Below are positions 12,501 through 26,680 of a stretch of DNA of 64,000 nucleotides, one piece after another. Under the pieces are notes generated by a model. It saw only the letters and a program-made list of their open reading frames with translations, was not told the origin of the DNA and made no database searches. Source of the DNA: an uncultured Candidatus Woesearchaeota archaeon (GTDB taxonomy: Archaea; Nanobdellota; Nanobdellia; UBA10117); assembly GCA_903864915.1 (NCBI GenBank), contig CAIPHS010000011.1, forward strand, positions 14,634 through 78,633, given 5' to 3'. The position numbers and the translations under genes were made by a program. Every line of letters begins with the position of its first letter. The stretch's first letter is position 1.

Positions 12501-15500
12501 CTGATAATAACCGGCTCCAAGCGAAACATTCGTGTTCTTCTCACTCGTTACATTTGTTCCATTACGATAAATCTGGTCAGTGCCTGATGTTGAACTTGAG
12601 CTTGCATTAAGATTAGCACCATAAGGTATTGTTACATTATTTTGGATACCATTAAGAGTCAAATTAACAAAATCGTTCGCAGTACTGATCGTGAGATATC
12701 TTACTACTGTGCTTCCAGCAGTGTAATTAGTTCCGCCTGTTGTGTTGTACACATATACATAATTGCCTGCACCAAGAGTTGCAAGTTCAGTTGCCGGACT
12801 TCCGCTTGTAATAAAACTTCCATTTCTGTACAGATTAAATGTTAGGTCCTGGCTGACAGTTGAGATGCCTGTTGCATTGCTTGGGGTCCCGTAAGTTATT
12901 GTTGCATTGTTAAGAGCACTTTGTAAGTATAAGCTAAGCGAGCCAGATGGATCTGCTTTGTTTATCAACAATGTGTTTGTCTGCTGTGTACAATCAGAAT
13001 AATTTACACCACCTGTCCACTGGCAAGCATAATTATAAGATCCGGCTGTTGCGACCGCATCTGGTGAGCTCTTTGATGTGGAGTTCCTTGTGAAAGTCAT
13101 GCTTCCATCGCTTGAACCAGCTGAAACAGTACAGTTTGTGCTTGAAGATGTGCTATCGTAAGTCCTTGTCCAATTTTTGTCTGTAGCTAGCGTACACGTT
13201 CTTGTTGCCTGGTTTATTACAAAGTTGCTGGTGTTTGTGGCGCTGGTATAATTAGCATTACCTGTTGTGTTACATTCATATGCCCAGGTACTAACTCCAA
13301 GTGTTACAGCAGTCCCGTTTTCAGTCGCGGTTACATTAGTTCCATTTCTGTATAAAGCAACGGTGCCAGAGTTAGCTGTGCATGAACAAGTGGCTGTTAA
13401 GGCCGCACTATAATTCTGTGGTGTTGTCTTATCAAATGTTAAATTACACACTGATGTGCCCTTGTTCACAAACGCATAATAGGTGACGCCAGTGGCATTG
13501 TCGCTGTAGTTCGTATTTCCAGTTGCATTAACTTTGTAAGCATAAGTTCCGTTACCCAAAACAGATATGTTTACTTGTGGTGAAGCTCCGCTTGCCAGCA
13601 ACGTTGCATCCCTATACAAGAAAACAGTTCCAATTAGAGTTGTGCTGGTTGCGTTTATTGATTGTGGGTAAGTGTAAGTGCTATTTGCCTGCGTCCCGTT
13701 CAAGTACAGATTTACTGGATTGTCTGCCTTGCTTACTGTGAATGTTTGCTGCGCGCTTGCATTTGTGTTGCCAACAGAATCATTTGCGTAAGACTTCCAG
13801 TAGTATGTTCCGGCCCCAATTGTTGTACTGTAACTCCATACTCCGCTGGCATTTGTTCCTGACACAAGAGCCGCAGTATAGTTTTGAGCTGAGCCAGACC
13901 AGTTGCCGTCTATTTGTACTGTTGAGACATTGATATTATCTGCCCAAGTTATATTAAATACTGATGGTGTTGCGCTATATGTCAATGGAATACTTGATTG
14001 ATTATTGCTCCAGGTTGGTTTTGTATTGTCAATTGTAATTGTTCCGGCAGGATTGAATGAACTTGAATTGACAGTTCCGTCTCCAGCAGTGCAGTTGATA
14101 TCGACAACTTGCGATGCAAGAGCTGAGATATCCCAGTTGTATGCTCCTGTTGTGGATGAGTTAATGATATGCCATGTTCCGCTATCATTTGCACCTATGA
14201 AATACGTAATAGTATCTGTGTCCGCATCAGTTGAGCCTGTGCAGTTTATTGGGATTGTGCTGTTTGTGCCACCGTACATACCGGTTGTTGGTGTAAGTGT
14301 AGTTGGTGTTGTTGGTGCTGTGTTCTGAACAGTAGCGGTGCTTGAGTTTCTCCAACCAGTTGATTCGTTTGCGATACTATCACTTGCCATAGTAGCACAA
14401 ATTATTTGGTCGTTTTTATCTCCATTTCCAGCAATAGAAAGGTCCAAGGCGGAACTTACTTGTCCGCTGATTAAACCGTTGTTCTTGTACCATTGGTAAT
14501 ACCAGGCTGCTACGTCCCCATTAACATCAGTGAAGCTGCCATTTGTACAAGTAAGTACTGTATTTGTGGCAGGCGTAAGATTGCTTAGTGTAGGATTAGT
14601 TGAAGTTGGTGCTGTATTACTTGTTGTAAATGTCTGCGATGCGGATTTAGTCCATGTCCCTGTTGAATCATTTACCCAAACGTACCATCCAACAAGGCGA
14701 TTGTTTGTGGCATTGTTCAGTATGGTTATATTGCACCAGTTGGAGTTTCCGCTTAAAGAAGTAAATGATGTGTTAACAAAACTGCTACCTGTGTTGTTAT
14801 GTTCGATTTTACAACCGGATAGTCCATCAATGTCTGTAACATTTGCAGAGTAAAGCGCATTTACATTATGATTTGTGTCATTCATCGTAAAAGAAGCAAA
14901 TGTTGTGGCAGAGTCAGATATTGTTCTTGATGCTGAGTTAGATGTCCCGTTTACAAATGTGTCAGTTGGTATAACAGTACAAGTCCATGTCTGGCCTTTT
15001 GATAGGTTCCCGCTTGAAAGGTTGAATGATGTCTGTGAAACAAGCCCTGAAAGCACAGTGGTTGTTCCGTTAGTCCAGTTGAAGTAATATGAAATTGTAT
15101 CGCTGTCTGAATCAGTGCTTCCGGAAACCGAACAGTTCAAGTTGTCTGTTTTGTAAGCGGTTGCCGGAGCTATTGTAACAGTAGGTTGTGTAGGTGCATT
15201 GTTTGGATAAGTATTTGTGCCAGTAACTGAAGCAACGGCATTGCTCGTGTCATTGACTGTTATATTTATTGAAAGTGCTTTTACGGTTGTGGTATTAGTG
15301 CATCTAAATATAGTTTGATTGGTTGTTGAATTAATGCTTGTAGATGCTATTAACGTGCATTCTGTACTGTTGACTGTGACTGTACTTAGGTCTGTGTAGC
15401 TGTCCACATCAGTTACATTCACAGTTGCATTGAATGAATGTCCTGTTGTGTTGTTTGCGAAAGCAATTGCTGATATTGTTGGTACGCTGTTCTGGATTGT

Positions 15501-18500
15501 AATATTTGTTGAGTTCTTTGCAGTACCGTTCACAGTTCCATCATTTGGGATGACCTGGCAAGTCCAGTTATCTCCCTTTGTAAGGTTCCCTGATGTAAGA
15601 ATTGTAATATTTGTGTTTGTACCGTTTGTTATGCTAGTTTTTATTCCGCTAAAGTTTGCAGCGTTGTTCTTATACCATGTGAAATAAGCAGTAAGGCTTG
15701 TTTGTTCTGCGTCTGTGAGCGTTGCGTTACAATATAAGTTGTTAATTTTATAGGCAGTTGTCGGGTCAATTGTTGGAGTAGTCGTGTTTGGAGCTGTGTT
15801 TGGAACTGTTACATTTATTGTCGCGATATCTGTAACATTCCAGTTGCCCTGTGTGTCATTCGCCCAAATTCTCCAGCCAATTATGCCACTCACAGAACTA
15901 TTACTCCACGTGAAATTAGACCAGTTTCCAATGCTTGGGCCTATTTGCAACGGAGAGCCATAAACTCCGCTCTTGTTTGCCCACGCACCAGTCTCGTTTG
16001 TTGATAGAACAGCATAGCTTAGGTTAACATTGTCTGTCCAATAAGCTGAAAGTTTGACAGAGTCGGTATTGTTGATTGTTGAAGCGTTTTGGCTCTGGTT
16101 TGACCATCCTGGAGCCTGTATGTCCGTCCAGTTTACCTGCAGCAAAGGCCTTTGGTTTGCTGTCGCACTATTACTAGTTGTATATGTTTTTCTGGTGTTT
16201 TGTGTAGCCTCGTTACTATCTATTATTATCCATCCCTGGTTTTTGCTTTGGTTATCTGCAAAGATTTGTACATCATTAGTTACGTTAAACGAATAATACC
16301 CAGTTATGCTTACACCTGTGCTGGTTGAAAGAGTGGCGTTGTAATCGCCGCCAGCAGTTGTCCAGGCATTTCCTGTCGTATAATTGTTCCATGTTGCTTG
16401 AAGTTCGACCCATGTCCTGTTATCGTAAATTTTGTAGACATTGTGTGTTCTTGCGCCGGCGTCAGTAGCTGTAACATAAAATGTCAGATTGGCTTTGTCT
16501 ATCCTTACTCCAGAAGGAATACTTGAAAGATTGAATTTAATTAAGCTTCTATAAGCTCTGCCAGCGGCATTCCATTTACCAACTATCATGGTTGTGATGC
16601 TGCCATAATTGCTGTTGGCGCTTGCTTGATATATTTGCGTATCATTCGTCAGTGCAGTGCCGTTGAATTCGGCATATCCAGGATCGCCAGGTGTAATTGT
16701 TATGTTGTAAAGCGTTCCAGGCGTAAGTCCATATGCAATCGTATGCCACTGGCCTTCTTCACAAGTTTGCGCTGCGAAAGTATAATTGTCGCATTTTGTA
16801 AGTACACCTCCCGTAAGATTTACAGTAATGTTTGCTGTTTGGAAGCTGCCTAGCGGATTGACCGCAAAAATGTTTAATGCGCCATCCGATAGTCCTGGTT
16901 TATCAAACCCAGGCAATATAAAATTTGAATCAACGGTATAATTGTAGTACGTAATACTAATTGTTGGCGTATTTACTGGAGATATTTTTATAGTATAATT
17001 CCCAGCTATTAGGTCAAATGAGTATGTGGTGTTTGTCTGCAGGTATACTATTTGCCCCGTTGAATTTATTATCGTAAGAGTTGCATTTATCGCAGAACCG
17101 TTCGCACTTGGTATCGACTCATTCTGCTGCTTTGATACTGCTAAGGTTTGCGCTGTATTGTTTACCCATGTTGAGTTCACATTTCCAGCATTGTCTGCAG
17201 TCCTTATTTGTATCTGGTATGTTGTTGAATTACTTAGTCCGGTTGCATTGTAGTAGTTGTTTGAAGTATTTGTTTTGAATGTCCCGTTTAGCCATGCTTC
17301 TGCGTGATTAAAGTCAGCATCAGCAGGGTTTGTCCAGTTCCAGTATATCCAGTCTAATCCATACAACGGCGCAGACAATCCAGTAATTGTTGCAGGAGGT
17401 GTTGTGTCTAGTATTGTAACATTTGCATAATAAGTTACATTTGATGCAGTGTAATTCGTATCTCCAGGGAATGAGCCTGTTACGTTGTAATAACCTACCT
17501 GTGAAAGTGTCGTAATGTTAGTCAGGGGTGTAACTCCAGATTGCTGTGTCCATCCACTTATGTTTGTGTCCAGATAGACTGTCTTTCCGCTGGCATTTAT
17601 TGTAACAGTGAAGTTCGCGACATCACCCGTATTGTAACTTCTGTTTCCTTCAGTTCCGTTTAAGAAAAGTCTTGTCAGTGTTGCTGCCTTGTTCACTACA
17701 TAATTTGAGCTGTTAGTTGCACTAGTATAATTAGCATTGCCGGTGATATTGCACGTATAATTATATGTTCCAACCCCCAATGTTACATTTGAGTTTATTT
17801 CAGTTGTTACATTTGTTCCGTTCCTATAAAGCTGGGCAGTTCCTGCTGTGCATGAACATGAAACATTGAGTGATGTGCCATAGGTCTGTGGTGATGTTGG
17901 ATTAAAGCTAAGCGAACAGGCGCTAGTTGCCTGGTTCACAAAAGCATAGTAAGTGACACCAGTTAAGTTGTCACTATAGTTCGCATTGCCGGTGGCATTA
18001 ACTTTGTAAGCATAAGTCCCGTTGCCAAGATTTGACAAGTTAGTCTGTGGAGAAGCCCCACTAACCATCAAATTCCCATCGCGGTAAACATTAACAATGC
18101 CACCAGTTGAAGTACCAGTAGCATTAACAGTTGCTAGATAAATATACGTAACATTACTGTTAAGCGTACCATTTAAGTACAGGTTTACATTAATTGCTGT
18201 TTTATTTATGGCGAATGTCCAGTTTGCTGTGGAGTTCGGGTTCCCGTTAGTGTCATTAGCGTAAGACTTCCAGTAAAATGTTCCTGCAGGAAGTGTAGCA
18301 TTATAGCTCCAAATACCATTGGCGGTTGTTCCTGAGATAAGTGTTGCAGTGTAATTCTGCGGAGAACCTGACCAGTTCCCTTCTATCAAAACAGTTGAAA
18401 TATTTACGTTGTCTGCCCAAGTTATATTAAAGATTGAGATCTGCGAAGCATTATACTGTGTGGGGAAACTCGACTGATTAGTTGACCATGTTGGTGGATT

Positions 18501-20807
18501 TGTATCAGGCACAGTGTAATTTATTGTAACAGTATAATTTGCAGGAGCAAAACTGCACTGCGACCTGTTGTCACAGGCCCGGCAGTTCCACAAAATTGCA
18601 CCATTATTCAGATTCGTCCTGTTAAATGTAGTTTGATTTGATGTTCCGGAAGCATTCACTGTGCCATTAGCCAGGAAAGTTCCCGTATAATTCCAGTAGA
18701 AGGTGATATTAGAAAGTTTAATGTCATCAGTTGCATTACATGAGAATGTAACATTGTTTGACGTCGTTACATTTCCGTTTGCTGGGCTGACTAATGTTGC
18801 GTTAGGAGAAGTATCTGGAGTATAAGTAACATTAAAGAATAAAACATCCCAGAAGCCAACACCATTCGCACTTGGTGCGCCAACGCGTGTGATTTCTGCT
18901 TTTGCAAGAGCGCCTGTTGCGCTGGCACCAAAGAAGTTGCTGCAGCTCCAGCTTTCGTTGGCTGTTATGTTCTGACACGTCATGTTTGTTGGTTCTGATG
19001 TAGGTGGAATGGTGGTGTTAACTACAGTGTAGCTTGCTCCATTGTTAGCGTCCACTGATATATTGGCTACCGTTATGGCAGAACCGCTGTTATTGTACCA
19101 CCATTTGTAACATAAGGATACAGAGACTAGCGAACTGCAATCTGTAACGCTGGTGTTAGTAGAGTTTATCCTTATACCGCCATAATATGAGCTGGTAGTA
19201 TTTCTTCTCCAAGTGTGTAATTCGTAGCTGGTGTCGTCTGCGGTAAGAGATGATCCATTAGCCACCGTGCATGCGGCACCAAAACTATTCTGCGCTGCTG
19301 TGTCCTCTGCTGCACAATTTGTTATAGGTATTTGCGCGTACGCAGGGTCTTCTGGCGTTAGTACGAAACTATAATCCTGGCCCGGTGTTATACTTTGCAC
19401 AAATACCCAATCACCAGTGCAAATCTGATTTGCGAAATCCCAATCCTTACATTTATATAAGGAATCTCCGACAGCTGTACCTGTGACTGTTGCGCTAGTG
19501 AATTTAAACTGAGTTGGGTCGATTGCATAAATATCTACAAAATCGCCTGATGCTGACGGATTATCAATTTTAATGAAATCGGTAATATTTTGTTGGATAT
19601 CCAGATTTTCAAAGTCTATTTCTTTAATAGGATGATTTTGCAATTTGACATTAATGTTATATTCGCCCCTTGGAATGTCAAGACCTGGCTCGCCGGCAGC
19701 TTCTTCAATCGGTGCTTGTGTTTCGCTGGAGGCTAATGGCATTGGCTGTTCAATCTGATTTTCTGCAGGTGTTGTCTGAGCAGGAGTTTGCTCTGTCAGT
19801 GCGGAAGGTTGTTTTGCTGCTAGCTCTTTAAGTGTAACCGCTTCATCGCCTTTTTCGCTCTTTCCAATTGCTTCGACAGCATTTGTTTTGGTATTTGCAA
19901 ATTCGATGGTTGCTGGCACAGCATCTCCATTGGAATCTACTATTGTTGTTCCAAAAAATACAGTCTCATTTGTCTGGTTAACAGCTTCTGACTTGTTTGA
20001 GAGGGAATACGAAACCTCATCAATCTGCAATTCACTATGGTCAACTTCTATGATTAATTCGTAATTGCTCGCATCCAAGCCGTCTGGAAGCAGGCAGGTA
20101 TCTTCACAGACGTCTGTAAAGCTTATTGTTCCTGTTTGTTTCTCTGTGGTTACATTTGTGGCGTTAACCAAGGTCTCGTTTGTTGCATTTTCAGTAGGTG
20201 TGGTTAAATTCTCTTCGAGAACAGTAATGTTTTCAGCAGGCACTGCATTCTCGGATTGATTTTCAGTTGCACTTTCAGGGCTTAGCTGTTCCATTGGAGT
20301 TCCTTCGCCATTATTATCTGCTGAAATCGTGTCCGCTGCAACTGCGATGCTTTTTAGAGCACTCGAAGCATCAGAAGGTGATTGTGATTCCAGCTGTGCA
20401 GGTTCGCCCCCGCTGTCAGAAGAAGAGGCCGAACTTCCAGTAACATCTGTGAATAAACCAGTGGCCAAATCAGTAGCCTTATTCCTTAAAAGGTTTACAG
20501 AGTCAAAAACAATGAACGTCCCACTTGCCGTTTTAAGGAGAACTTTTGCCTGGCCTTCGCCTGAAAAATTGCCTGAGATTTTTACCGATTTCAAATTATA
20601 TGGCTGGCTTTCAGCGATATTTAAGACATAAGAGCTGTTTGAAGTATAAACCTCATTAACTGGGGTTGAAAAATTCTCTGAGGAAACAAAAAACCTTCCG
20701 GTGATTGCTGGGCCGGTGATTAAAAGGTTTGTTAAGATTATAAGATTTAAAGATATGATTAGTATGAACATGATTTGCGACATTGATAGCTTTCGCTTAC
20801 TCTTCAA
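9564..20807 (-). CDS. giant (3747 aa) repeat-rich, sequon-rich cell-surface protein
   Basis: Uninterrupted 11.2-kb ORF with a TTG start preceded by AAGGTGGTG. It has an N-terminal signal anchor and a C-terminal TM helix with a KR tail. In between are tens of ~85-aa Ig-like modules, two FN3-like modules and a DNRLRE-like module. Confidence 0.9.
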   Translation of the reverse strand: MKSKRKLSMSQIMFILIISLNLIILTNLLITGPAITGRFFVSSENFSTPVNEVYTSNSSYVLNIAESQPYNLKSVKISGNFSGEGQAKVLLKTASGTFIVFDSVNLLRNKATDLATGLFTDVTGSSASSSDSGGEPAQLESQSPSDASSALKSIAVAADTISADNNGEGTPMEQLSPESATENQSENAVPAENITVLEENLTTPTENATNETLVNATNVTTEKQTGTISFTDVCEDTCLLPDGLDASNYELIIEVDHSELQIDEVSYSLSNKSEAVNQTNETVFFGTTIVDSNGDAVPATIEFANTKTNAVEAIGKSEKGDEAVTLKELAAKQPSALTEQTPAQTTPAENQIEQPMPLASSETQAPIEEAAGEPGLDIPRGEYNINVKLQNHPIKEIDFENLDIQQNITDFIKIDNPSASGDFVDIYAIDPTQFKFTSATVTGTAVGDSLYKCKDWDFANQICTGDWVFVQSITPGQDYSFVLTPEDPAYAQIPITNCAAEDTAAQNSFGAACTVANGSSLTADDTSYELHTWRRNTTSSYYGGIRINSTNTSVTDCSSLVSVSLCYKWWYNNSGSAITVANISVDANNGASYTVVNTTIPPTSEPTNMTCQNITANESWSCSNFFGASATGALAKAEITRVGAPSANGVGFWDVLFFNVTYTPDTSPNATLVSPANGNVTTSNNVTFSCNATDDIKLSNITFYWNYTGTFLANGTVNASGTSNQTTFNRTNLNNGAILWNCRACDNRSQCSFAPANYTVTINYTVPDTNPPTWSTNQSSFPTQYNASQISIFNITWADNVNISTVLIEGNWSGSPQNYTATLISGTTANGIWSYNATLPAGTFYWKSYANDTNGNPNSTANWTFAINKTAINVNLYLNGTLNSNVTYIYLATVNATGTSTGGIVNVYRDGNLMVSGASPQTNLSNLGNGTYAYKVNATGNANYSDNLTGVTYYAFVNQATSACSLSFNPTSPQTYGTSLNVSCSCTAGTAQLYRNGTNVTTEINSNVTLGVGTYNYTCNITGNANYTSATNSSNYVVNKAATLTRLFLNGTEGNRSYNTGDVANFTVTINASGKTVYLDTNISGWTQQSGVTPLTNITTLSQVGYYNVTGSFPGDTNYTASNVTYYANVTILDTTPPATITGLSAPLYGLDWIYWNWTNPADADFNHAEAWLNGTFKTNTSNNYYNATGLSNSTTYQIQIRTADNAGNVNSTWVNNTAQTLAVSKQQNESIPSANGSAINATLTIINSTGQIVYLQTNTTYSFDLIAGNYTIKISPVNTPTISITYYNYTVDSNFILPGFDKPGLSDGALNIFAVNPLGSFQTANITVNLTGGVLTKCDNYTFAAQTCEEGQWHTIAYGLTPGTLYNITITPGDPGYAEFNGTALTNDTQIYQASANSNYGSITTMIVGKWNAAGRAYRSLIKFNLSSIPSGVRIDKANLTFYVTATDAGARTHNVYKIYDNRTWVELQATWNNYTTGNAWTTAGGDYNATLSTSTGVSITGYYSFNVTNDVQIFADNQSKNQGWIIIDSNEATQNTRKTYTTSNSATANQRPLLQVNWTDIQAPGWSNQSQNASTINNTDSVKLSAYWTDNVNLSYAVLSTNETGAWANKSGVYGSPLQIGPSIGNWSNFTWSNSSVSGIIGWRIWANDTQGNWNVTDIATINVTVPNTAPNTTTPTIDPTTAYKINNLYCNATLTDAEQTSLTAYFTWYKNNAANFSGIKTSITNGTNTNITILTSGNLTKGDNWTCQVIPNDGTVNGTAKNSTNITIQNSVPTISAIAFANNTTGHSFNATVNVTDVDSYTDLSTVTVNSTECTLIASTSINSTTNQTIFRCTNTTTVKALSINITVNDTSNAVASVTGTNTYPNNAPTQPTVTIAPATAYKTDNLNCSVSGSTDSDSDTISYYFNWTNGTTTVLSGLVSQTSFNLSSGNLSKGQTWTCTVIPTDTFVNGTSNSASRTISDSATTFASFTMNDTNHNVNALYSANVTDIDGLSGCKIEHNNTGSSFVNTSFTSLSGNSNWCNITILNNATNNRLVGWYVWVNDSTGTWTKSASQTFTTSNTAPTSTNPTLSNLTPATNTVLTCTNGSFTDVNGDVAAWYYQWYKNNGLISGQVSSALDLSIAGNGDKNDQIICATMASDSIANESTGWRNSSTATVQNTAPTTPTTLTPTTGMYGGTNSTIPINCTGSTDADTDTITYFIGANDSGTWHIINSSTTGAYNWDISALASQVVDINCTAGDGTVNSSSFNPAGTITIDNTKPTWSNNQSSIPLTYSATPSVFNITWADNINVSTVQIDGNWSGSAQNYTAALVSGTNASGVWSYSTTIGAGTYYWKSYANDSVGNTNASAQQTFTVSKADNPVNLYLNGTQANSTYTYPQSINATSTTLIGTVFLYRDATLLASGASPQVNISVLGNGTYAYKVNATGNTNYSDNATGVTYYAFVNKGTSVCNLTFDKTTPQNYSAALTATCSCTANSGTVALYRNGTNVTATENGTAVTLGVSTWAYECNTTGNANYTSATNTSNFVINQATRTCTLATDKNWTRTYDSTSSSTNCTVSAGSSDGSMTFTRNSTSKSSPDAVATAGSYNYACQWTGGVNYSDCTQQTNTLLINKADPSGSLSLYLQSALNNATITYGTPSNATGISTVSQDLTFNLYRNGSFITSGSPATELATLGAGNYVYVYNTTGGTNYTAGSTVVRYLTISTANDFVNLTLNGIQNNVTIPYGANLNASSSSTSGTDQIYRNGTNVTSEKNTNVSLGAGYYQYKANTTGNTNYTANGTGIIYYVTVSQVTSTCSLSFNPTSPQTYGTAINASCSCTNPEASATLYRDGANVTVTENNINTVLAAQAHNYTCNISASQNYTSASNSSNYTITRANPSGNLGLALNGIESDTAITYGTQSNATGWSDLVNNQDLTFNLYGNGILANSGDPASDVQTLAAGNYTYVYNTTGGVNYTAGSSPARLLIVDRAISVLTLSASPGWVVFNGTQTNVSCGTNTPQVTPSFYRNGTSASNPDVQTLSPGNYNYICNNSATQNYTEASTSNTLAVTLKNVSNCYLNFNPTSPQTYPTSVNASCSCTNPESSAKLYRDDADVTATENNVFASLAAGNYSYVCNVTETGNWSTASNSSIYELDPVTTVLSLTASPSWTNTYPTETTVNCSANNAEVTPQLYVNGTFVGIPYTITHAAGTYDYVCNNTASQNYTSESASNTLTINKTSTSTQLYLDGMGANETVTYPSQTNATAVTDVGSVTLYREGSSVSNQDIATLAAGTYNYTAVNLGDENYTGSFETWFLTVNQNTSSCNLAFNPTSPQTYGTAINASCSCTNPEAATELYRDGVDVTSSENNMYTTLAANTYNYVCNTSASQNYTSASTGFSYVINPVTGVIYLYLNGSRANFTTSNNTYVNISAVLVSGTGDMQVYDNGTQIYSGASPSQNVTLFDALGVHNITAEFLGNQNYTAAYETWWINITPPVISNVIAQSITDNSTQILWDTNVFANSTIDYDTTLALGSNITSASFVLSHSLALASLSANTTYFFNVTSCDQYNNCVTSGPYNFTTTSTTLTPSGFESILKHRKPTTNVSAVANETLPGQAGYTGTYYIGDFNFTSVYDYNSSVNESHVFTYDGVNHTITPLQIADNFVDLQIESKVSRLKLGVNESGDVDVTDDGVADVRITLNGIEAGSAYLTVRILEKPLASVAFAPSYMFYVQTLLTFLVVLYLIWAIWRKKKREAEEKEAKRKTR
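13209..14021 (-). repeat. intragenic segmental duplication, copy B (aa ~2263-2533 of the giant protein)
   Basis: Collinear with aa ~771-1040: PTWSxNQSS...NITWADN...YYWKSYAND...NLYLNGT...GNGTYAYKVNATGN.NYSDN.TGVTYYAFVN...CSCT...LYRNGTNVT. Confidence 0.8.
17688..18497 (-). repeat. intragenic segmental duplication, copy A (aa ~771-1040 of the giant protein)
   Basis: Partner of 13209..14021. Shared nucleotide strings include tctgcccaagttatattaaa. Confidence 0.8.
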
Positions 20808-20984: not shown

Positions 20985-21797
20985 TTAGCGGCTCTTTCTT
21001 TTAGCTTTTCTTTTTTTGTTGCCTTTCTCGCTCTTGTAATACTGCCAAACTATGACTCCAACGAGTCCCAATAAAAGCCACCAGTACCAGCACAGGCTGA
21101 GAATTTCATAGCACGCATAGCTAACTTGTGGGCAATTCCCACCCGCTGTTACTTTTCCCGGCAATCCATATATTATAAAATCAGAGAATGATAAAAATTG
21201 AGCAGTGTAGTGGTAATAAACAATATCGGAACCCGTATTATTAACGTTTAAAACCTGCATATTACCATCATTAAATTTTTTAACGCCTATTGCCGATGGG
21301 CTTACGTTATGAATGGCTAGCCAGACTTTTGAAACCCTGAAGTTCAAATTGGCAGCGTTATACTGGTTAACAGTTATGCCATCGATGCGCACAGTTGCGC
21401 AATCGTAAAAAATCTCGCCTTCCTGCAGGCTATGATTCTGGCATCCTTCAGTGGTTATGTTTATAGTTCCTGAGTTGATATCCTGTGCAGCAACAAGAGT
21501 TAACCGGTCAAAAGGACTTCCAAACACGTCAATAGGAAAAGTTAGATTATCCCCCGCATGGACCGCATTCTGAATCGTATGCACGCCTTGAACGTAAATA
21601 TCTATGTAAGGTACGGTGGCATTCATTGCGCCGGCACCTGCATTTCCGCCTGCTTGCGGTGAAGGAGACGGCGGCGGTGTTGGACTACCTGGAACTGTGA
21701 GTGTAGCCCCAATGCCACCACTAGAATCGGCATGAACCGAATTAATAAAAACAAAAAGGGAAAGCACGATTAATGCCACCAAAAACTTCTTATCCAT
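20985..21797 (-). CDS. secreted PGF-pre-PGF-like domain protein with C-terminal TM anchor and KR tail
   Basis: Signal peptide (VHA/DS), Pro-rich linker and NLNFRVSKVWLAIHNV...VKKFNDG...YYHYTAQFLSFSDFIIYG. The ATG at 21797 overlaps the upstream TGA (TGATG); the ORF track extends to TTG at 21803. Confidence 0.7.
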   Translation of the reverse strand: MDKKFLVALIVLSLFVFINSVHADSSGGIGATLTVPGSPTPPPSPSPQAGGNAGAGAMNATVPYIDIYVQGVHTIQNAVHAGDNLTFPIDVFGSPFDRLTLVAAQDINSGTINITTEGCQNHSLQEGEIFYDCATVRIDGITVNQYNAANLNFRVSKVWLAIHNVSPSAIGVKKFNDGNMQVLNVNNTGSDIVYYHYTAQFLSFSDFIIYGLPGKVTAGGNCPQVSYACYEILSLCWYWWLLLGLVGVIVWQYYKSEKGNKKRKAKRKSR

Positions 21798-22300
21798 CAG
21801 CAATTCATCGTCACAGTTATTGTTTGGTTGTAAGTTGCGGGGTTTTGCGATGCCGGAACTGCCACACCAAAGTATAGTTGCAATGATGCCAATTTATTCA
21901 AGTTTCCACCAGCTATCACAACATCACTTGCAGTCAAAGCTGTTCCTGCGCCATACGTAAATCCGGATGTGCTGTATTGTGTCTGACCTACGACAAAGTT
22001 ATTAACACCGCCATCACTCCATTGCGTCCCTCTTGTGGTTGTGTTTGTTGCCTGCGCATTTCCATTGTTCGTTACATTAACAACTTGATTTGTAGCACCT
22101 GTATTTGTTCCGGCAGCTACTGAGCCAAAGCCTATTGAGCTTGTGTTTAGCGACAACATGCATTCCGCAGGAACCGTAACTTGTCCTGTTACATTGTTTG
22201 AGCTTGTATATGCATAAGCCATATCCACTGTGGCTAATAGCCCGACAATCGCCAGCGCTACAAAACCAACTATACCTATTAGCATTTGCCAGTTTTTCAT
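21797..22300 (-). CDS. small secreted pilin-like beta-sandwich protein (SCPU/Csu-like by eye)
   Basis: Signal peptide with an AYA cleavage-type site. The mature protein is a paralog of the C-terminal module of the 1142-aa protein and ends YNQTITVTMNC. GGAGGT lies upstream of the ATG. Confidence 0.7.
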   Translation of the reverse strand: MKNWQMLIGIVGFVALAIVGLLATVDMAYAYTSSNNVTGQVTVPAECMLSLNTSSIGFGSVAAGTNTGATNQVVNVTNNGNAQATNTTTRGTQWSDGGVNNFVVGQTQYSTSGFTYGAGTALTASDVVIAGGNLNKLASLQLYFGVAVPASQNPATYNQTITVTMNC

Positions 22301-22301
22301 A

Positions 22302-22793
22302 TTACCTCCGTCTCCTTATAATGCTCTCATACACTATATAGAGCAATATAAATATTATGGTTAGCGCAATTAGTAGCAAGCAAACTTCGGTTTTCAAAGA
22401 CAGCGAAACCTTATACACAAAATTCTTTTCCATCTCAGTCTGCAACACCACAACGCCACTAGCACCCCTTTCGTGCCCAAGCGCACGGACCTTACCGCTA
22501 AAACTACCTAAATGTTCCGCAGTTGCGGTTACATCGATTTGCTGCTGACTATGTGGCACTAACGTAAAATTTGCAGGCGAAACTGAAACTGTATTACCCA
22601 CATAATACGTGTTAACATCTATAGTAGTCTCGCCAGGGTTTACAACCCAATAGGTCAATGTTTTGTTTTCGCCTAACTTCAGTGTTCCAAAGTCCAATAC
22701 GCCCGCAGTCTGGCCAAATTCTGCACTCGCTATGCTCAGTGTTGCAGACAGCAACATACCTAACAACACTAGCACTTTAATCTTATTTTTCAT
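22302..22793 (-). CDS. membrane-anchored single Ig-fold protein (PapD/ASH-like by eye)
   Basis: Signal peptide. The segment LDFGTLKLGENKTLTYWVVNPGETTIDV...VSPANFTLVPHSQQQIDVTA follows the ASH/MSP/PapD-like pattern. C-terminal TM helix plus RRRR. Confidence 0.65.
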   Translation of the reverse strand: MKNKIKVLVLLGMLLSATLSIASAEFGQTAGVLDFGTLKLGENKTLTYWVVNPGETTIDVNTYYVGNTVSVSPANFTLVPHSQQQIDVTATAEHLGSFSGKVRALGHERGASGVVVLQTEMEKNFVYKVSLSLKTEVCLLLIALTIIFILLYIVYESIIRRRR

Positions 22794-22801
22794 TGTTTCC
22801 C

Positions 22802-25800
22802 CTAACAGTTCATTGTAACTGTTATTGTTTGATTGTAAACCGCGGAATTTTGTGCATTCGGAACTGCAAGGCCCCAGTATGTATCCAAACTTCCACCAGA
22901 TGAAATATTGCCATTTGCCAAGGCAGCATCTGATGCTGTCAAAGCGCTGGTCAATGACGTATAAGTTACATTTGTATCACCATACTTTGTGTAATTAACA
23001 ATGAAGTTATTACTGCCGCTATCTGTCCAATTGGTACCGCGTACAGTCGTATTTGTTACTGTCGCAGTTCCAGTGTTATTGATCCTTAACAACAAACTGT
23101 TCGCCCCCGTATCGGTGCCTGGCGCAACTGTACCGAAGTTCAGCAAGCTTGTTGACAGAGAGGCTATACACGTGGTGTTTACATTAACTGTTAATGTCCG
23201 GTTTGAAGATGCAAATGCGCAATTTGCGGAAGAATCACAGGCTTTGCAGTTCCATGTATAAGTACCAGTTGTAAGGTTGAGTGTGAAGTTTGCATGGGTT
23301 GACGTGCCCGAAACAACTGCTGTCTGGTTAAGGCTGAATGACTGATTGCTTGAATTAGTTATGTACATGCTGATGTTCTGCACATTATTGTTATCTGTTG
23401 CGTTGCACTGGAACGCAACTGTTGCTGGAGATATTGTGCTGTAACCGTTCAGCGGGCTGCTAAGTGCGACGCTGGGCAGAGTTGTGTCTATGATGTTTGC
23501 GTAAACATATTGTATGCTGTTGCTCACGCCGTTTATGTCAGTGGCATTTATTGTTATCTTATACGTGTCAACATAATTCGTGTTTGAGTAACCTGTTTCC
23601 CAAAGTCCGGATGTTGCATTGTAGATTAGTGAAATTATTTCATATCCAATACTATATGATATGTTTGCGGTGACTGTGCTCACTCCAGCTGCGTCTGTTA
23701 CATTCGCCTTGATAGGTATTATGCTTCCAAGCACATAATTGGTTCCATTTACGGGGCTTGTGATGTTTACAGTCGGAGGCGTGATACTATATGCGAAATT
23801 GTATGTTGTGTTAACATAACTGCCATCAACATTTCGTATTGTGCCGCCTGTGCTGTTCATGCAGGCTGCGTAAATTCTATATGCGCCATCTCCAAAGCTG
23901 AGGTTGTTTGTACTGTAGTTCATTGGGTTCCAGATGGTATCGAGCTTTAATATCTGGGATGGCTGCAGTTGCCTCGGCGTTGTTTCGTTTACAACAACGT
24001 CATCATCTAACCATGTGGTGCCGTTCCAGTACTGTGTTTTCATTAAGAGATAGCATGATGCATTTGTTGTTCCATTGTTTAACAACTTGCTCTGGTTTTC
24101 GGGAGCTGTGGTGACTGTCTTGAAAAAGTTAAATTCGGCCAATCTCCATTCAAATCCCCGGTTGTTGGCGATTGCCCTGAACTGTATGCGTGCCTGACTT
24201 ACATTTGTCTGGTTGAAACTTGCTATTGTCCAGGCACTGTCAGTAAAAGAACTGTTGTAGATATTTATCCAGCTGCTGCCATTGTATATGTCAACTGTTG
24301 CAAGGTCAACATCAACTGACTTTGCATTAAACCTTATCTTGTCTGAAAGCACAGGAGTTCTATTCAAATACAGATAGAAACTCATTAGTCCATCCGGATC
24401 ATTTGCTTCATGATAGCTGCGGGTTTCTGTAACAAGTTCATCATCAAATGCAGATATTTCATTATCCCATTGGTTTGAAGGATCATCGTAACCTGTTGCG
24501 GATACCCAGCCCACCGCAGCAGGGCCTGTGGTGAATGACTGGTCCGAACCATTTGTCTGTCCAGCGCTGTTGTTAATCTGCGCAATAAAGTGATATGTCT
24601 TTCCGTTTTGCAGTCCGTTAATTCTGCTAGACATAGAAAAGACTGTGTATTCTGGAGACTGCCAGTCAGTTGCGTTTGTATATGAAGTATTTTCTCCGTA
24701 AATGAACCTTATCTGGCATTTGTCTCCACCATCACTAAGAGTGGTAGCATGAAGAATTGCAGTATCATCTTCTACTGCGGTTGCTTCTCTCGTCGTGACA
24801 ACTGGCAGGTTTACCTGCGTGGATATGTTATAGAACTGGAACTCGTACAGCCAGTATATCCAGCCGCCAACAGTATAGTTAAACCTGAACCTTCCGCCCG
24901 TAACATTTCCTATTGTGAAATTTGCTTCATACCAATTAAGATTGTCAATAGGGCCTTGGTAAACATCAGTCCAGTTGCCATCCCTAACTACATCTATGTC
25001 AACTGCATTTACCTGCGTATAGTAATCTGCCCAAACTCTGACACGGTCAGATGTTATCTGGCTAACATTAAATGTTATGAATGAACCCCAACCTGCACCA
25101 GGGTTGGAATTATCGCTTGCATAGGTATGCGTATCGCCATCCATCGAGTTAGGCAAGTTTGTCCAAAGCCCGGTTGGGTCAGAGTTATTTGATGGTAATA
25201 TCCATAAACCAGGCGGGTCGCCAACGCTTATGTATGAATAATACTTTTTGCCCAGGCTGTTTGTGGCTGTAAGCAGAACTACGTAATGCCCTGGCAGCTT
25301 GTTTCCAGAGGACCATATTGCCTGCCATGTGCCGTCAGTTGAACTTCCATTAACAAGACTCAAAGACACTTCTTCGCTGCCTGCCGAGGTCGGTATCTGT
25401 GCAGTTACGTTTGATACTGCACGACTGCCCTTAACATGTGCAGATATAAGCAGTTGAGAAGATTCAATTCCCGTCAATCCAAATCTGCCAGAACCTCCAC
25501 CTCCGCTTGGACCAACATAAGTACTTGTAATCTGAGGAGCATCAGCATCGGATTCATCAGGGTCGGTTATGTTGATGCCTTGATTTGCAGTATAGCCTTC
25601 TTTTAGCGTATGTACTTGTATGGAAAGGTTCTGGTAGCTTACAGTTACATTCCTTGTTTCTGTAGAGTTGCTGTTTCCAATCGTGTCTATTGCGGTCGCA
25701 TTGAATAAGTAAAGTCCATTGGACAAATCAGTAAAGTTCGCAAAATTAGGTGACGTTAAAGTTGTAGTTGAATTAATTAATGATGTAGAGTTATACAAAT

Positions 25801-26230
25801 TGATAGTTATGTTAGCCAAACTAGCGTCTAAAGCTGTTGCATTAATCAGCACGAAATTTCTATTTATAGAAGAACCTGATGTTTCTGTCGGAGTTACAAA
25901 TTGTACCTGTGGGTCTGGAGCGGCTATAATTATGTTTCTTGTTTCAGTTGTATTTTCAAGTGAAACATTTTCAGCAGGCGCTGCATTCCCTGATTGATTT
26001 CCAGTTGCGTTTTCCTGGCCCGGTTGTTCTGTTGGAGTTCCTGTGCCGGGATTAGGAATTGAAAAGTTAGTTGAAAAATTTCCGGAGGAAACAAAAAACC
26101 TGCCCGTGATTGCTGGGCTGATGATTAGAAGATTTGTCAGGATTATGAGATTTAAAGATATGATTAGTATGAACATGATTTGCGATATTGATAGCTTACG
26201 CTTACTCTTCAGATATGACTTTCTCGCCAA
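22802..26230 (-). CDS. 1142-aa multidomain adhesin-like surface protein with C-terminal pilin-like module
   Basis: TTG start preceded by GGGAGGTGGTGG, and the same leader as the giant protein. Contains Ig-like modules, an FN3-like module, two discoidin-like modules, and a last ~125 aa homologous to the 167-aa protein. Confidence 0.85.
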   Translation of the reverse strand: MARKSYLKSKRKLSISQIMFILIISLNLIILTNLLIISPAITGRFFVSSGNFSTNFSIPNPGTGTPTEQPGQENATGNQSGNAAPAENVSLENTTETRNIIIAAPDPQVQFVTPTETSGSSINRNFVLINATALDASLANITINLYNSTSLINSTTTLTSPNFANFTDLSNGLYLFNATAIDTIGNSNSTETRNVTVSYQNLSIQVHTLKEGYTANQGINITDPDESDADAPQITSTYVGPSGGGGSGRFGLTGIESSQLLISAHVKGSRAVSNVTAQIPTSAGSEEVSLSLVNGSSTDGTWQAIWSSGNKLPGHYVVLLTATNSLGKKYYSYISVGDPPGLWILPSNNSDPTGLWTNLPNSMDGDTHTYASDNSNPGAGWGSFITFNVSQITSDRVRVWADYYTQVNAVDIDVVRDGNWTDVYQGPIDNLNWYEANFTIGNVTGGRFRFNYTVGGWIYWLYEFQFYNISTQVNLPVVTTREATAVEDDTAILHATTLSDGGDKCQIRFIYGENTSYTNATDWQSPEYTVFSMSSRINGLQNGKTYHFIAQINNSAGQTNGSDQSFTTGPAAVGWVSATGYDDPSNQWDNEISAFDDELVTETRSYHEANDPDGLMSFYLYLNRTPVLSDKIRFNAKSVDVDLATVDIYNGSSWINIYNSSFTDSAWTIASFNQTNVSQARIQFRAIANNRGFEWRLAEFNFFKTVTTAPENQSKLLNNGTTNASCYLLMKTQYWNGTTWLDDDVVVNETTPRQLQPSQILKLDTIWNPMNYSTNNLSFGDGAYRIYAACMNSTGGTIRNVDGSYVNTTYNFAYSITPPTVNITSPVNGTNYVLGSIIPIKANVTDAAGVSTVTANISYSIGYEIISLIYNATSGLWETGYSNTNYVDTYKITINATDINGVSNSIQYVYANIIDTTLPSVALSSPLNGYSTISPATVAFQCNATDNNNVQNISMYITNSSNQSFSLNQTAVVSGTSTHANFTLNLTTGTYTWNCKACDSSANCAFASSNRTLTVNVNTTCIASLSTSLLNFGTVAPGTDTGANSLLLRINNTGTATVTNTTVRGTNWTDSGSNNFIVNYTKYGDTNVTYTSLTSALTASDAALANGNISSGGSLDTYWGLAVPNAQNSAVYNQTITVTMNC
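26071..26217 (-). repeat. leader cassette copy B
   Basis: Partner of 20666..20812, offset 5405 nt. Confidence 0.9.
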
Positions 26231-26489
26231 AATCCACCACCTCCCTTAGTTTGACAGGAACGCTAAGTATGTGAAAAACTTCCAGAACATTGCGAAGATT
26301 TGCAAAAGAAACTGTGATGCAACCTTTTCCTAATCGCTGGCAACTGAATTTCTGCACAGCCCCGGGATGGAACTTGCCGTTTGCATTATATCCGAAGAGC
26401 CTTTTGTTTAGCAGAACTCGAGTGGCCTCAGGGCTGACATTTTCCCAAAAGACCAAATAGATGCGATTCTCTCTCCCAGTTAGCTCCAC
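26202..26489 (-). CDS. 95-aa cytoplasmic protein, unknown function (candidate locus regulator)
   Basis: GTG start preceded by GAGG. It is the first gene of the surface locus, and its 3' end overlaps the adhesin start and its Shine-Dalgarno sequence by 29 nt. Confidence 0.45.
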   Translation of the reverse strand: MELTGRENRIYLVFWENVSPEATRVLLNKRLFGYNANGKFHPGAVQKFSCQRLGKGCITVSFANLRNVLEVFHILSVPVKLREVVDFGEKVISEE

Positions 26490-26503: not shown

Positions 26504-26542
26504 AAGGTTACGTTCGTAACTAATAAAGGTTACGTTCGTAAC
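26504..26542. promoter_or_regulatory. tandem palindromic operator-like site
   Basis: AAGGTTACGTTCGTAAC occurs twice (26504-26520 and 26526-26542, period 22 nt). Each copy contains the inverted repeat GTTACG-nn-CGTAAC. Confidence 0.5.
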
Positions 26543-26680
26543 CGTCAGTTGAGAATTTTGTTTTACAATTTTACCAGTTAATTTATATTCTGCATAAAAT
26601 TATACACCAATCAAGCATGCAAGCTTCGCTTGTAGGTAATTATCTTACCTGCATGCTAACAAGCATGCATACTAAATCTA

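Follow-up and report, generated by a model that had tools for sequence, protein, structure and literature searches.

A four-gene cassette on an archaeal contig

The stretch of DNA that we analysed, 64,000 nucleotides of a contig from an uncultured Candidatus Woesearchaeota archaeon (hereafter the window), contains four co-directional minus-strand ORFs packed at 20985-26230, which from the ORF calls we judge to be real genes:

22802..26230, minus strand: large surface protein of 1142 aa, start at TTG 26230; candidate tip adhesin
22302..22793, minus strand: Ig+TM protein, 163 aa; by analogy a proposed membrane-tethered chaperone-like or base partner
21797..22300, minus strand: small subunit, an ORF of 167 aa
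20985..21803, minus strand: fourth protein, 272 aa from TTG 21803 or 270 aa from ATG 21797; proposed membrane anchor/terminator

Going from the adhesin gene to the fourth gene, neighbours are separated by gaps of 8 nt and 1 nt, and the last two overlap in TGATG. These junctions and the ORF coordinates agree with the initial annotation of this DNA insofar as it described four tightly spaced genes. Public gene calls start the large protein at M19 (26176), and the resulting 1124-aa product is on record. The initial annotation had counted five genes at the locus; we find a cassette of four, from which the 95-aa ORF at 26202-26489 is excluded. This ORF overlaps the start of the adhesin gene, has no family match in a scan of Pfam and NCBIfam profiles and does not resemble the 95-aa gene that lies upstream of the cassette at another locus, L001. 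A 3747-aa surface protein had also been placed with the locus, and a leader and a tail cassette had been described as common to it and the 1142-aa protein. The common leader is borne out (36% over 223 aa, with starts that are near-identical in DNA), but BLAST detects no similarity between the tails, and the 3747-aa gene is missing from the closest relative, L025. Neither the 95-aa ORF nor the 3747-aa gene is part of the cassette.

The large protein ends in a paralogue of the small subunit

Three features were located in the large protein:

26120..26179, minus strand: hydrophobic leader, aa 18-37, behind an n-region rich in K/R; predicted as Sec signal or signal anchor
23552..23776, minus strand: Big_7 (bacterial Ig-like) domain, aa 819-893; PF17957, E 8.2e-9
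22805..23170, minus strand: C-terminal subunit-like domain, aa 1021-1142, bounded by its first and its terminal Cys; proposed strand acceptor

The Ig region also matches a bacterial Ig domain in the PDB (9kvu, E 0.0026). Of the discoidin, FN3 and Ig modules previously suggested for this protein, the Ig module holds (Big_7, aa 818-905), while discoidin and FN3 have no profile match. The protein carries 65 N-x-S/T sequons. Its final 122 aa and the mature 167-aa protein are paralogues, as had been claimed (52% identity, 71/136; E 4e-33), and the HMM of the small-domain family finds this C-terminal domain with an E value of 1.7e-31. The proposed architecture, an adhesin bearing a subunit domain alongside a separate free subunit, is real. 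Across loci the large proteins have only their C-terminal 122-332 aa in common, such that the heads vary and the tail is kept, and from these sequences we regard the large protein as a candidate tip adhesin.

The small domain belongs to an unnamed, widespread family

The subunit consists of a signal peptide (aa 1-30), an N-terminal extension and a single beta-sandwich domain that begins at Cys47 and ends at the C-terminal Cys167, two residues that probably close the domain by a disulfide. The AF2 monomer has a pLDDT of 84.2 and is confident from residue ~41 on; the N-extension is a coil outside the fold, and the domain stops as soon as its last strand ends. The family has no name, is widespread (1013 clusters at E<=1e-3) and is covered by neither a Pfam nor an NCBIfam model, and the 167-aa protein of the window has no Pfam match even at E<=10. 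Some members, 250-3400 aa long, carry the domain at their end; others consist of it alone (~150-180 aa) or in tandem (~320 aa). Among the 150 best family matches, nearly all have the domain extending to the C-terminus, and the terminal residue is Cys in 135 of 159 members.

In a Foldseek search of the PDB with the AF2 model of the subunit, the top match is CupE (8cio), Csu (7zl4/6fq0) is at rank 7, and the ranking is dominated by donor-strand pilins and filament subunits: CupE, Csu, Caf1, FimA, PapA, CFA/I, TasA (fibre 8aur; rank 10, E 3.9e-3, TM 0.42/0.32) and cannulae (9h8b; rank 46). The scores are weak (E 1e-3 to 7e-2, TM 0.33-0.49), and complete sandwiches, namely the GH123 N-domain and ciliary ASH domains, score as well as pilins. 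The predicted fold weakly resembles donor-strand pilins above all else in the PDB. Among 70 family members, SCPU is matched by 8 (best E 0.005, below the gathering score) and DUF4402 by 12 (below the curated cut-off), and one relative carries the JGI name 'spore coat protein U-like'. The SCPU/Csu resemblance noted earlier therefore survives in weak form, as these sub-threshold SCPU matches and the Foldseek rank of Csu, and fails at curated thresholds, at which neither a Fimbrial nor an SCPU pilin model matches the subunit.

These matches can also be read differently. The domain may be a complete, self-sufficient Ig/CBM-like module of the NEW3/GH123_N/ASH type that binds glycan, S-layer or host surface, in which case the small proteins would be secreted lectin-like paralogues and their N-terminal motif a processing, glycosylation or sorting tag. 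The best sequence-profile matches of the family are indeed GH123_N_2 and NPCBM_assoc (12/70 members each, best E ~1e-5, below curated cut-offs), GH123 N-domains occupy Foldseek ranks 2-6, the A'-B strand motif is common to ASH domains (hhalign probability 87%), and an always-C-terminal domain would fit a surface-anchoring role as well. The abrupt end of the domain after its last strand and the position of the N-extension outside the modelled fold speak against this reading, which we consider improbable.

Conserved gene neighbourhoods in DPANN and CPR

Nine distinct DPANN contigs, among which subunit identity is 55-68%, again have the large protein first, then the Ig+TM protein, the small subunit and the anchored fourth protein, and the order is the same in the distant L031, whose subunit is ~30% identical. 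Orthologues of the fourth protein come after the subunit gene in nine loci; in L025 a fourth protein with a different ectodomain and the same strand follows the subunit gene. The Ig+TM gene adjoins the subunit gene in 12/12 distinct DPANN loci, and in remoter DPANN and CPR (Patescibacteria) loci a small-domain protein stands beside an Ig+TM protein in 20/20 of those with enough flank. The universally conserved neighbour of the small-domain gene is the Ig+TM partner and not the fourth protein. In many loci there are two free subunits, or else subunits with two domains in tandem that retain the linker strand. Because the order is kept in relatives, the synteny comparison proposed with the initial annotation leaves its reading standing. 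Its framing as an archaeal system has to be given up, since the small-domain family is also found in CPR bacteria.

The Ig+TM partner and the anchored fourth protein

In the 163-aa protein, a signal peptide precedes a single Ig domain of the ASH/HYDIN type (aa ~24-102); an additional strand (NFVYKVSLSL, aa 124-133) comes next, then a TM helix at aa 138-155 and a tail of RRRR. The protein passes the gathering scores of PF22544 (HYDIN/VesB-like Ig; 31.0 bits against 25.5, E 3.1e-7) and PF15780 (ASH; 29.8 bits against 27, E 7.1e-7), in agreement with its earlier description as an ASH/MSP/PapD-like beta-sandwich with a C-terminal TM segment. The best matches of its profile in the PDB are Hydin/CFAP ASH domains. 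We take ASH and HYDIN-VesB-CFA65 Ig domains to be assigned to the PapD-like superfamily clan; the 163-aa protein itself matches the ASH and HYDIN models only, and neither PapD_N nor PapD_C. The DPANN protein is related to a CPR partner with two domains and a TM helix (hhalign probability 89.7%, E 1.9e-6). That the 163-aa protein might act as a chaperone is a speculation by analogy.

The fourth protein comprises, in order, a signal peptide, a strand mimic, a Pro-rich linker, a PGF-pre-PGF domain, a TM helix and a basic tail, in keeping with the PGF-pre-PGF-like protein with C-terminal anchor that had been described. Its two C-terminal features are:

21165-21563, minus strand: PGF-pre-PGF domain, aa 81-213; TIGR04213, 43.2 bits against a cut-off of 28, E 3.7e-11
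21036-21095, minus strand: TM helix, aa 237-256, followed by the basic tail

No model for a PGF-CTERM archaeosortase signal matches the fourth protein, whose C-terminus (...LCWYWWLLLGLVGVIVWQYYKSEKGNKKRKAKRKSR) is without a PGF motif.

A strand motif common to the subunit and the fourth protein

We observed, as a new finding, that the mature N-terminus of the fourth protein (DSSGGIGATLTVP) copies the N-terminal extension of the subunit (SSNNVTGQVTVP). The logic of the initial annotation predicts such a copy for a base or terminator protein. The two segments are:

22163..22210, minus strand: N-terminal extension of the subunit, aa 31-46, YTSSNNVTGQVTVPAE; proposed donor strand
21684..21728, minus strand: strand copy in the fourth protein, mature N-terminus, aa 26-40, DSSGGIGATLTVPGS; the Pro-rich linker is next (21654-21683)

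In standalone family members, V-T-A-x-V-x-V is conserved ahead of the first Cys. The motif [IVL][TG][AG][STQ][VLI]T[VI]P, which was defined after the sequences had been seen, occurs in 150,283 ORF residues (expected number 0.011) at no other place than the mature N-terminus of a subunit or fourth protein. An independent PSSM for the strand, built from 99 standalone subunits, gives 10.3 bits for the fourth protein of the window, and 10-17 bits at the same site of the fourth protein in 7/11 loci, against a best-of-60 background with a mean of -0.4 and a maximum of 7.4. The strand is kept where a Pro-rich linker replaces the adjacent domain, as in the window, and where the whole ectodomain differs, as in L025.

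The N-extension is specific to free subunits and to the inter-domain linkers of tandem proteins, with PSSM scores of 12.5 for standalone proteins and 10.9 for tandem linkers, compared with a mean of -3.6 for large proteins and a background of -13.6. Most large proteins are without it, and their Thr-rich linkers run into the first Cys of the domain. The window adhesin has a strand-like segment ahead of its C-terminal domain (PSSM 10.0), so that completion in cis is possible there. DCA coevolution was too noisy to position the strand, and a concatenated two-subunit AF2 model built without an alignment has a pLDDT of 37.

A processing, glycosylation or sorting tag, as the complete-module reading has it, leaves unexplained why tandem proteins keep the strand between their domains, 8 residues past the end of the first, and why the alternating hydrophobic positions of the strand are those conserved between subunits and anchors; moreover, the motif lies at a varying distance (1-6 residues) from the signal-peptidase site. 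The post hoc definition of the motif could be taken to favour yet another reading, namely that unrelated surface proteins are adjacent by chance and their N-terminal similarity is coincidental. Since gene order is the same in the nine contigs and in L031, this reading is effectively refuted; the recovery of the anchors by the independent PSSM and the overlapping or 1-8-nt junctions also oppose it, and we regard its probability as negligible.

Comparison with known surface systems

Among described architectures, the WxL/WxLIP (Csc) cluster of Gram-positive bacteria (Lactobacillales/Bacillales) is by analogy the nearest; it does not appear in the initial annotation. Such clusters contain a small and a large WxL protein, a WxLIP (DUF916+DUF3324+TM) and often an LPxTG protein (PMC10599100, PMC9772566), and AF2 predicts that the WxL sandwich has a gap that is filled by a strand of WxLIP, a TM-tethered Ig protein (PMC10599100). 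Here, too, a small domain-only protein clusters with a large protein of variable head and always C-terminal domain, with a conserved Ig-fold protein ending in a TM helix and with an extra, separately anchored protein. The CPR partner resembles WxLIP in having two sandwiches and a TM helix, whereas the DPANN partner has one Ig domain. In contrast to WxL domains of 160-190 aa, the small domain has ~122 aa, a Cys pair and no WxL motifs, of which a WxL domain has two (Trp-x-Leu); it occurs in DPANN archaea and CPR bacteria; the fourth protein is TM-anchored with a strand mimic, a feature absent from PMC10599100 and PMC9772566; and WxL is described as a peptidoglycan-bound platform rather than a chain. 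WxL (PF13731) is not among the Pfam matches listed for family members (the best 25 of 47 families) or for CPR proteins, and the Ig+TM partners match neither DUF916 nor DUF3324, with EfmWxLIP1 in the PDB reaching only E 0.65.

It is conceivable that the cassette encodes a finite platform of this kind, a hetero-oligomer of adhesin, one non-polymerising subunit, Ig+TM protein and anchored protein at the membrane or S-layer, in which the small domain would be completed or stabilised by the Ig+TM protein, in the way that is predicted for WxLIP-WxL. The isomorphic component list (PMC10599100, PMC9772566) and the universal conservation of the Ig+TM partner, not of the fourth protein, argue for such a platform. 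The many loci with two free or tandem subunits that keep the linker strand suit chain extension instead, the free subunit carries both a proposed donor and a proposed acceptor element, and no sequence similarity to WxL, DUF916 or DUF3324 appears among the matches listed. On balance we hold the finite platform to be rather unlikely.

The tip adhesins FimH and PapG of chaperone-usher pili have a variable head and a subunit-like C-terminal domain. The cassette is like chaperone-usher pili, especially the archaic Csu/CupE pili, in the architecture of its candidate tip adhesin, the alternating N-terminal strand of its subunit and its Ig-fold partner; pilins give the best Foldseek matches, and SCPU matches are sub-threshold. 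Unlike these systems, it belongs to an archaeal host without outer membrane and has no usher, there being no match to the usher family (PapC/FimD) among the cassette proteins and 10 neighbours. Its partner is a single TM-tethered ASH-type Ig domain rather than a soluble two-domain PapD, its proposed base is a strand-donating TM protein, and pilin Pfam models remain below threshold.

Usher-free donor-strand filaments have been described in archaea: the Sulfolobus threads (Saci_0406/0405), for which Saci_0405 was proposed as a strand-only-competent cap (PMC9715654), the TasA-like bundling pili of Pyrobaculum (AbpA; PMC9245690) and the cannulae of Pyrodictium (CanA; PMC12518558). They have in common with the cassette Sec-exported beta-sandwich subunits with an N-terminal donor strand, whose exchange is in our case putative, and the lack of an usher, but an adhesin with a fused subunit domain, an Ig+TM partner and a strand-bearing TM anchor are not described for them (PMC9715654, PMC9245690, PMC12518558). 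We found no sequence relationship of the cassette to threads, bundling pili or cannulae.

In Bacillus subtilis, the N-terminal segment of TapA reportedly mimics the TasA donor strand (Roske et al. 2023), so that TasA/TapA offers a likeness in the form of an accessory protein that mimics the donor strand of a subunit. It differs in that TapA is thought to nucleate (it is mentioned as nucleator in PMC9715654), whereas the mimic here is on a TM-anchored protein, and in fold family: the cassette has no Pfam or NCBIfam match to the TasA/camelysin (peptidase M73-like) fold or to a SipW-type signal peptidase, and no peptidase gene.

A proposed usher-free donor-strand assembly

Our observations comprise the genes, their domain paralogy and family memberships, the synteny and the common N-terminal motif. 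On these grounds the four genes of this ultra-small (DPANN) archaeon probably specify a stalk or fibre at the cell surface, and we lean towards the hypothesis that adhesin, n subunits and membrane anchor form a chain linked by donor strands, with no usher involved and with the Ig+TM protein as tethered chaperone-like partner. All four proteins would be exported by Sec, and in the self-contained surface assembly a chain of small Ig-like subunits would hold a large, variable adhesin off the cell. The ~12-residue N-terminal strand of each subunit (V-T-x-x-V-T-V-P) would insert into the domain of the preceding protein, by donor-strand complementation of the kind known from chaperone-usher, TasA, thread and cannula filaments, giving the chain adhesin <- subunit(n) <- fourth protein; its polarity and length, like the incomplete fold and the insertion in trans, we infer. 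Because the fourth protein would supply only a strand, behind which come linker, PGF-pre-PGF domain and TM helix, it would terminate the chain and anchor it in the membrane. Like PapD/FimC or WxLIP, the Ig+TM protein may hold or prime subunits at the membrane when they have just been exported, and in lineages without the fourth protein it may itself be the base.

Ultra-small episymbionts make up two radiations, DPANN archaea and CPR/Patescibacteria. To our knowledge, almost none of them has been cultured, and how they attach to their hosts is largely unknown. The cassette is a compact, widespread candidate for such attachment, from a family of about 1000 clusters without a database model, and our reading specifies the entering strand, the receiving domain, the tip protein and the base protein. 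More tentatively, and with clear reservation, we suggest that DPANN and CPR share a previously unrecognised usher-free donor-strand system, composed of a variable adhesin fused to a subunit domain, subunits that polymerise, an Ig chaperone tethered to the membrane and, in part of the lineages, a TM anchor whose strand mimic ends the chain. It would serve as host-attachment apparatus and form an evolutionary link between WxL clusters and archaic SCPU-type chaperone-usher pilins. If our reading of the cassette is borne out, donor-strand assembly would also be known, in both prokaryotic domains, from systems that are anchored in the membrane and have no usher; the architecturally identical, poorly understood WxL clusters would gain a mechanistic reading, and many 'hypothetical' surface proteins would be annotated, including variable adhesin heads that probably set host range.

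Finally, adhesin tail and subunit are 92%, 82% and 81% identical within some genomes, as compared with 56% across genomes, and have been homogenised in the former.

Organization and conservation of the cassette

In this DPANN archaeon, the cassette as we delimit it here comprises four genes; the first two lie 8 nt apart, the second and third 1 nt, and the third and fourth overlap in a stop/start TGATG:

26230 to 22802, minus strand: candidate adhesin, 1142 aa, TTG start (public gene calls start at M19, giving 1124 aa)
22793 to 22302, minus strand: Ig-domain protein with a transmembrane (TM) helix (Ig+TM protein), 163 aa
22300 to 21797, minus strand: small subunit, 167 aa
21803 or 21797 to 20985, minus strand: fourth protein, 272 or 270 aa

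The C-terminal module of the adhesin was said in the initial annotation to be homologous to the 167-aa subunit, and the two are indeed 52% identical over 136 aa (E 4e-33). The discoidin and FN3 modules that had also been proposed for the adhesin were not found by profiles, which detect only a single Ig domain in it (Big_7, aa 819-893). The protein has a hydrophobic leader rich in K/R and 65 N-x-S/T sequons; its tail is conserved, while the heads differ from genome to genome. Two further descriptions hold: the 163-aa protein has a signal peptide and one ASH/HYDIN-type Ig domain, scoring beyond the Pfam gathering scores, with a TM helix and an RRRR tail only ~10 residues after it, and the 272-aa protein is PGF-pre-PGF-like (TIGR04213, 43.2 bits against a cut-off of 28) with a C-terminal anchor. 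The order of elements in the latter is signal peptide, DSSGGIGATLTVP, Pro-rich linker, PGF-pre-PGF domain, TM helix and basic tail.

The order of large protein with C-terminal small domain, Ig+TM protein, small subunit and fourth protein recurs across DPANN genomes, as a system of the kind first proposed ought to: it is found in the window and in eight loci on other contigs (L001, L004, L006, L013, L025, L026, L027 and L028, the last contig ending directly after the subunit), with subunit-domain identities of 54-78% among these loci. Partial copies are present in L007 and L009. In the remote DPANN loci L029 (Micrarchaeota), L030 and L031 the subunit stays beside the Ig+TM protein; L030 has two subunits, and L031 has the whole order again at about 30% identity, its first gene encoding a signal peptide, a Thr-linker and the domain without an N-terminal extension, followed by an Ig+TM protein, a subunit with the extension and a protein starting INIPATIKV. 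CPR loci encode a large protein and a ~310-aa protein, both of which terminate in a form of the domain without Cys. Their neighbour is a ~300-aa partner that combines a signal peptide with two sandwiches and a TM helix and is related to its DPANN counterpart, the Ig+TM protein (hhalign probability 89.7%, E 1.9e-6). A partner of the Ig+TM type is present in all 20 of the distinct loci that have enough flanking sequence.

The small-domain family and its N-terminal strand

No Pfam or NCBIfam model matched the 167-aa protein. An exhaustive profile search with the subunit family returned 1013 representative clusters at E ≤ 1e-3, of which 315 at E ≤ 1e-10, and the family is unnamed in the source records apart from one JGI entry, 'spore coat protein U-like'. 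The small domain extends to the C-terminus in nearly all of the best 150 matches and is found singly behind a signal peptide (~150-180 aa), as two copies in tandem (~320 aa) or as the end of proteins of 250-3400 aa. The terminal residue is Cys in 135 of 159 family sequences, and first and last Cys occur together in 186 of 192 domain units, the CPR branch having neither. In the tandem proteins (P0014, P0017, P0019, P0022 and 19 others) each copy has the Cys pair, and an extension-like strand lies 8 residues past the terminal Cys of domain 1.

In free subunits, the stretch from the signal-peptidase site to the first Cys contains a conserved strand whose hydrophobic positions alternate (consensus V-T-A-x-V-T-V-P); we call this strand the N-extension. 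We scored it with a position-specific matrix (PSSM) trained on 99 standalone subunits and containing no fourth-protein sequence.

Scores of sequence segments against the N-extension PSSM
Standalone subunits (leave-one-out): 12.5 ± 10.2 bits, n = 99
Linker preceding the second domain in tandem proteins: 10.9 ± 6.4 bits, n = 23
Segment preceding the domain in large proteins: -3.6 ± 6.9 bits, n = 36
Random 15-mers from large proteins: -13.6 ± 5.9 bits, n = 1705

In 7 of 11 loci the mature N-terminus of the fourth protein scores 10-17 bits; the background, taken as the best of 60 positions in 93 window ORFs, has a mean of -0.4, a standard deviation of 2.6 and a maximum of 7.4. A regular expression for the strand, which was defined post hoc, matches only at the mature N-termini of subunits and fourth proteins among 150,283 ORF residues, where 0.011 matches are expected. 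The window's fourth protein keeps the strand although it has a Pro-rich linker where its relatives have a neighbouring Ig-like domain, and that of L025, the closest relative, has a wholly unrelated ectodomain, yet starts ASVSATLTVP and ends with a TM helix and a basic tail. What is conserved in the fourth protein is therefore its N-terminal strand together with its membrane anchor. The N-terminal motif common to free subunits and fourth proteins, as judged by sequence comparison, is the key new observation of this analysis.

Several large proteins have a Thr-rich linker leading directly up to the first Cys. In the adhesin of the window, a strand resembling the extension (PSSM 10.0) precedes the domain, which makes completion in cis possible there.

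Relatives' fourth proteins (L001 10520-11782, L004 3255-4544, L006 8506-9729, L007 278-1621) have an added Ig-like domain at the N-terminus and, on the cytoplasmic side, a K/E-rich coiled-coil tail of ~100 aa; the window protein has neither.

Fold of the small domain

The subunit fails the curated thresholds for membership of pilin families: sub-threshold Pfam similarities of the family are spread over GH123_N_2, NPCBM_assoc, DUF4402 and SCPU, and its profile gave only insignificant matches to PDB sequences (fimbrial protein 7lhi, E 0.15; GH123, 0.2). An AF2 model built from a 10-sequence alignment has a pLDDT of 84, exceeding 90 from about residue 41, and the segment 31-48, NVTGQVTV included, is coil. 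Foldseek comparison of this model with the PDB places the CupE pilus at rank 1 and the Csu pilus at rank 7, with Caf1, FimA, PapA, CFA/I, TasA and cannulae spread throughout the top 50; however, E-values are only 1e-3 to 7e-2, TM-scores are 0.33-0.49, and both GH123 N-domains and ASH domains of ciliary proteins stand interleaved with the pilins. The likeness of the predicted fold to donor-strand pilins is therefore real but weak, and of the likeness to SCPU/Csu-type pilins raised in the initial annotation this structural resemblance survives, short of SCPU membership.

Mean-field direct coupling analysis of 192 domain units (Meff 188) recovered C47-C167 and the core strand pairs; in this noisy signal the single long-range coupling of the N-extension is V37-L142. 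We infer that the modelled sandwich would have an open groove, for three reasons: the domain stops immediately behind its last strand, the model shows the extension as coil, and donor-strand pilins are the best fold matches. A complete, lectin-like domain whose common N-terminal motif is a tag would accord with the interleaved GH123 domains; we regard it as improbable.

A donor-strand chain as the proposed mechanism

With slightly better than even confidence, we propose that the proteins form a donor-strand chain, adhesin <- subunit(n) <- anchor, in which each N-terminal strand would complete the sandwich of the preceding protein, the adhesin would form the distal end, and the TM fourth protein would be both chain terminator and membrane anchor. 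As no conserved ATPase, usher, sortase or peptidase was found near the cassette, assembly would be driven by folding energy, for which chaperone-usher, TasA, thread and cannula filaments offer precedent (PMC9715654, PMC9245690, PMC12518558). The spacing in the tandem proteins would allow their linker strand to fold back as a canonical last strand, and these proteins resemble dimers that are covalently joined in advance. By analogy with PapD/FimC and with WxLIP, for which AF2 predicts a strand filling a gap in the WxL sandwich (PMC10599100), the likeliest role of the Ig+TM protein would be to capture or prime subunits at the membrane; it may double as the base where the fourth protein is absent (L029, L030).

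Comparing adhesin tail with neighbouring subunit inside one genome gives 92% identity for L026, 82% for L001 and 81% for L004; the cross-genome mean is 56%, and the window reaches only 55%. This suggests that gene conversion or concerted evolution may have acted on the two domain copies in some lineages, a homogenisation that would fit two domains obliged to accept the same strand.

Among described architectures, the WxL/Csc cluster of Lactobacillales comes closest; it encodes a small and a large WxL protein, the latter with a C-terminal domain, a WxLIP carrying Ig domains and a TM helix, and frequently an LPxTG protein (PMC10599100, PMC9772566). A finite complex of this kind, in place of a chain, is a serious rival on account of that architecture, though we consider it less likely than the chain. 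No sequence similarity to WxL, DUF916 or DUF3324 was detected among the matches listed. The donor-strand chain that we favour shares with chaperone-usher pili the logic of an adhesin with a fused pilin domain, but the cassette has neither usher nor PapD-type chaperone; known archaeal donor-strand filaments, as described in the papers cited above, lack its fused adhesin, Ig+TM partner and strand-bearing TM anchor. Searches of open-access papers and bioRxiv preprints for DPANN or CPR together with donor strand, chaperone-usher or SCPU yielded no description of the family. We rate the cassette as a putative variant among donor-strand or strand-completion surface assemblies.

Sequences flanking the cassette

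Features around the cassette are as follows:

26506 to 26543, minus strand: GGTTACGAACGTAACC-TTTATTA-GTTACGAACGTAACC, a palindrome copy on each side of a TATA-like box, ~280 nt upstream of the adhesin start
26202 to 26489, minus strand: 95-aa ORF between this element and the adhesin, overlapping the adhesin TTG start by 29 nt
26100 to 26230 and 20760 to 20807, minus strand: near-identical leader DNA of the 1142-aa and 3747-aa genes, taking in a GGTGGTG box and the TTG start
9564 to 20807, minus strand: 3747-aa giant surface protein, 177 nt from the cassette
8627 to 9436, plus strand: SpoIIM-family membrane protein, a conserved downstream neighbour (minus strand in L025, 2379-3206)

The palindrome and TATA-like element is a candidate operator/promoter of the cassette. 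A sigma-70 promoter/terminator scan, a model that does not apply to an archaeon, gave counts near shuffle expectation. The locus had been described as having five genes; the fifth, the 95-aa ORF, is dropped, as no family matches it and it does not resemble the gene, likewise of 95 aa, that precedes the cassette in L001. Two readings of it are a long 5' leader and a small orphan gene.

The 3747-aa protein has a disaggregatase-related repeat (aa 1390-1558), 257 N-glycosylation sequons, 58 Cys and a C-terminal TM helix followed by a basic tail. We exclude it from the cassette since it lacks the small domain and is missing from L025, where SpoIIM directly follows the cassette. Shared leader and tail cassettes had been claimed for it: the duplicated leader is confirmed as the only feature common to it and the adhesin, and BLAST gives no signal for a tail common to it and the anchor. 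Large proteins of other loci have the motif G-[RWE]-F-[FV]-[VT]-S-[SE]-[GS]-N at the mature N-terminus, directly after the leader.

Housekeeping neighbours in the window are an IF-2/GTP_EFTU-type translation GTPase (aIF5B-like), NDK, an MFS transporter and SpoIIM. In the Micrarchaeota locus L029 (525-14351, GCA_028866905.1), the subunit and Ig/TM pair lies amid protein-glycosylation genes (STT3/AglB oligosaccharyltransferase, GT4 glycosyltransferases, PIG-L, sulfatases). The Patescibacteria clusters L010 (9308-12874) and L016 (8321-12813) extend downstream into several further proteins with signal peptide and C-terminal TM helix and into an FN3/dockerin/Y_Y_Y protein, so that the number of components may be larger in the CPR system than in that of DPANN.
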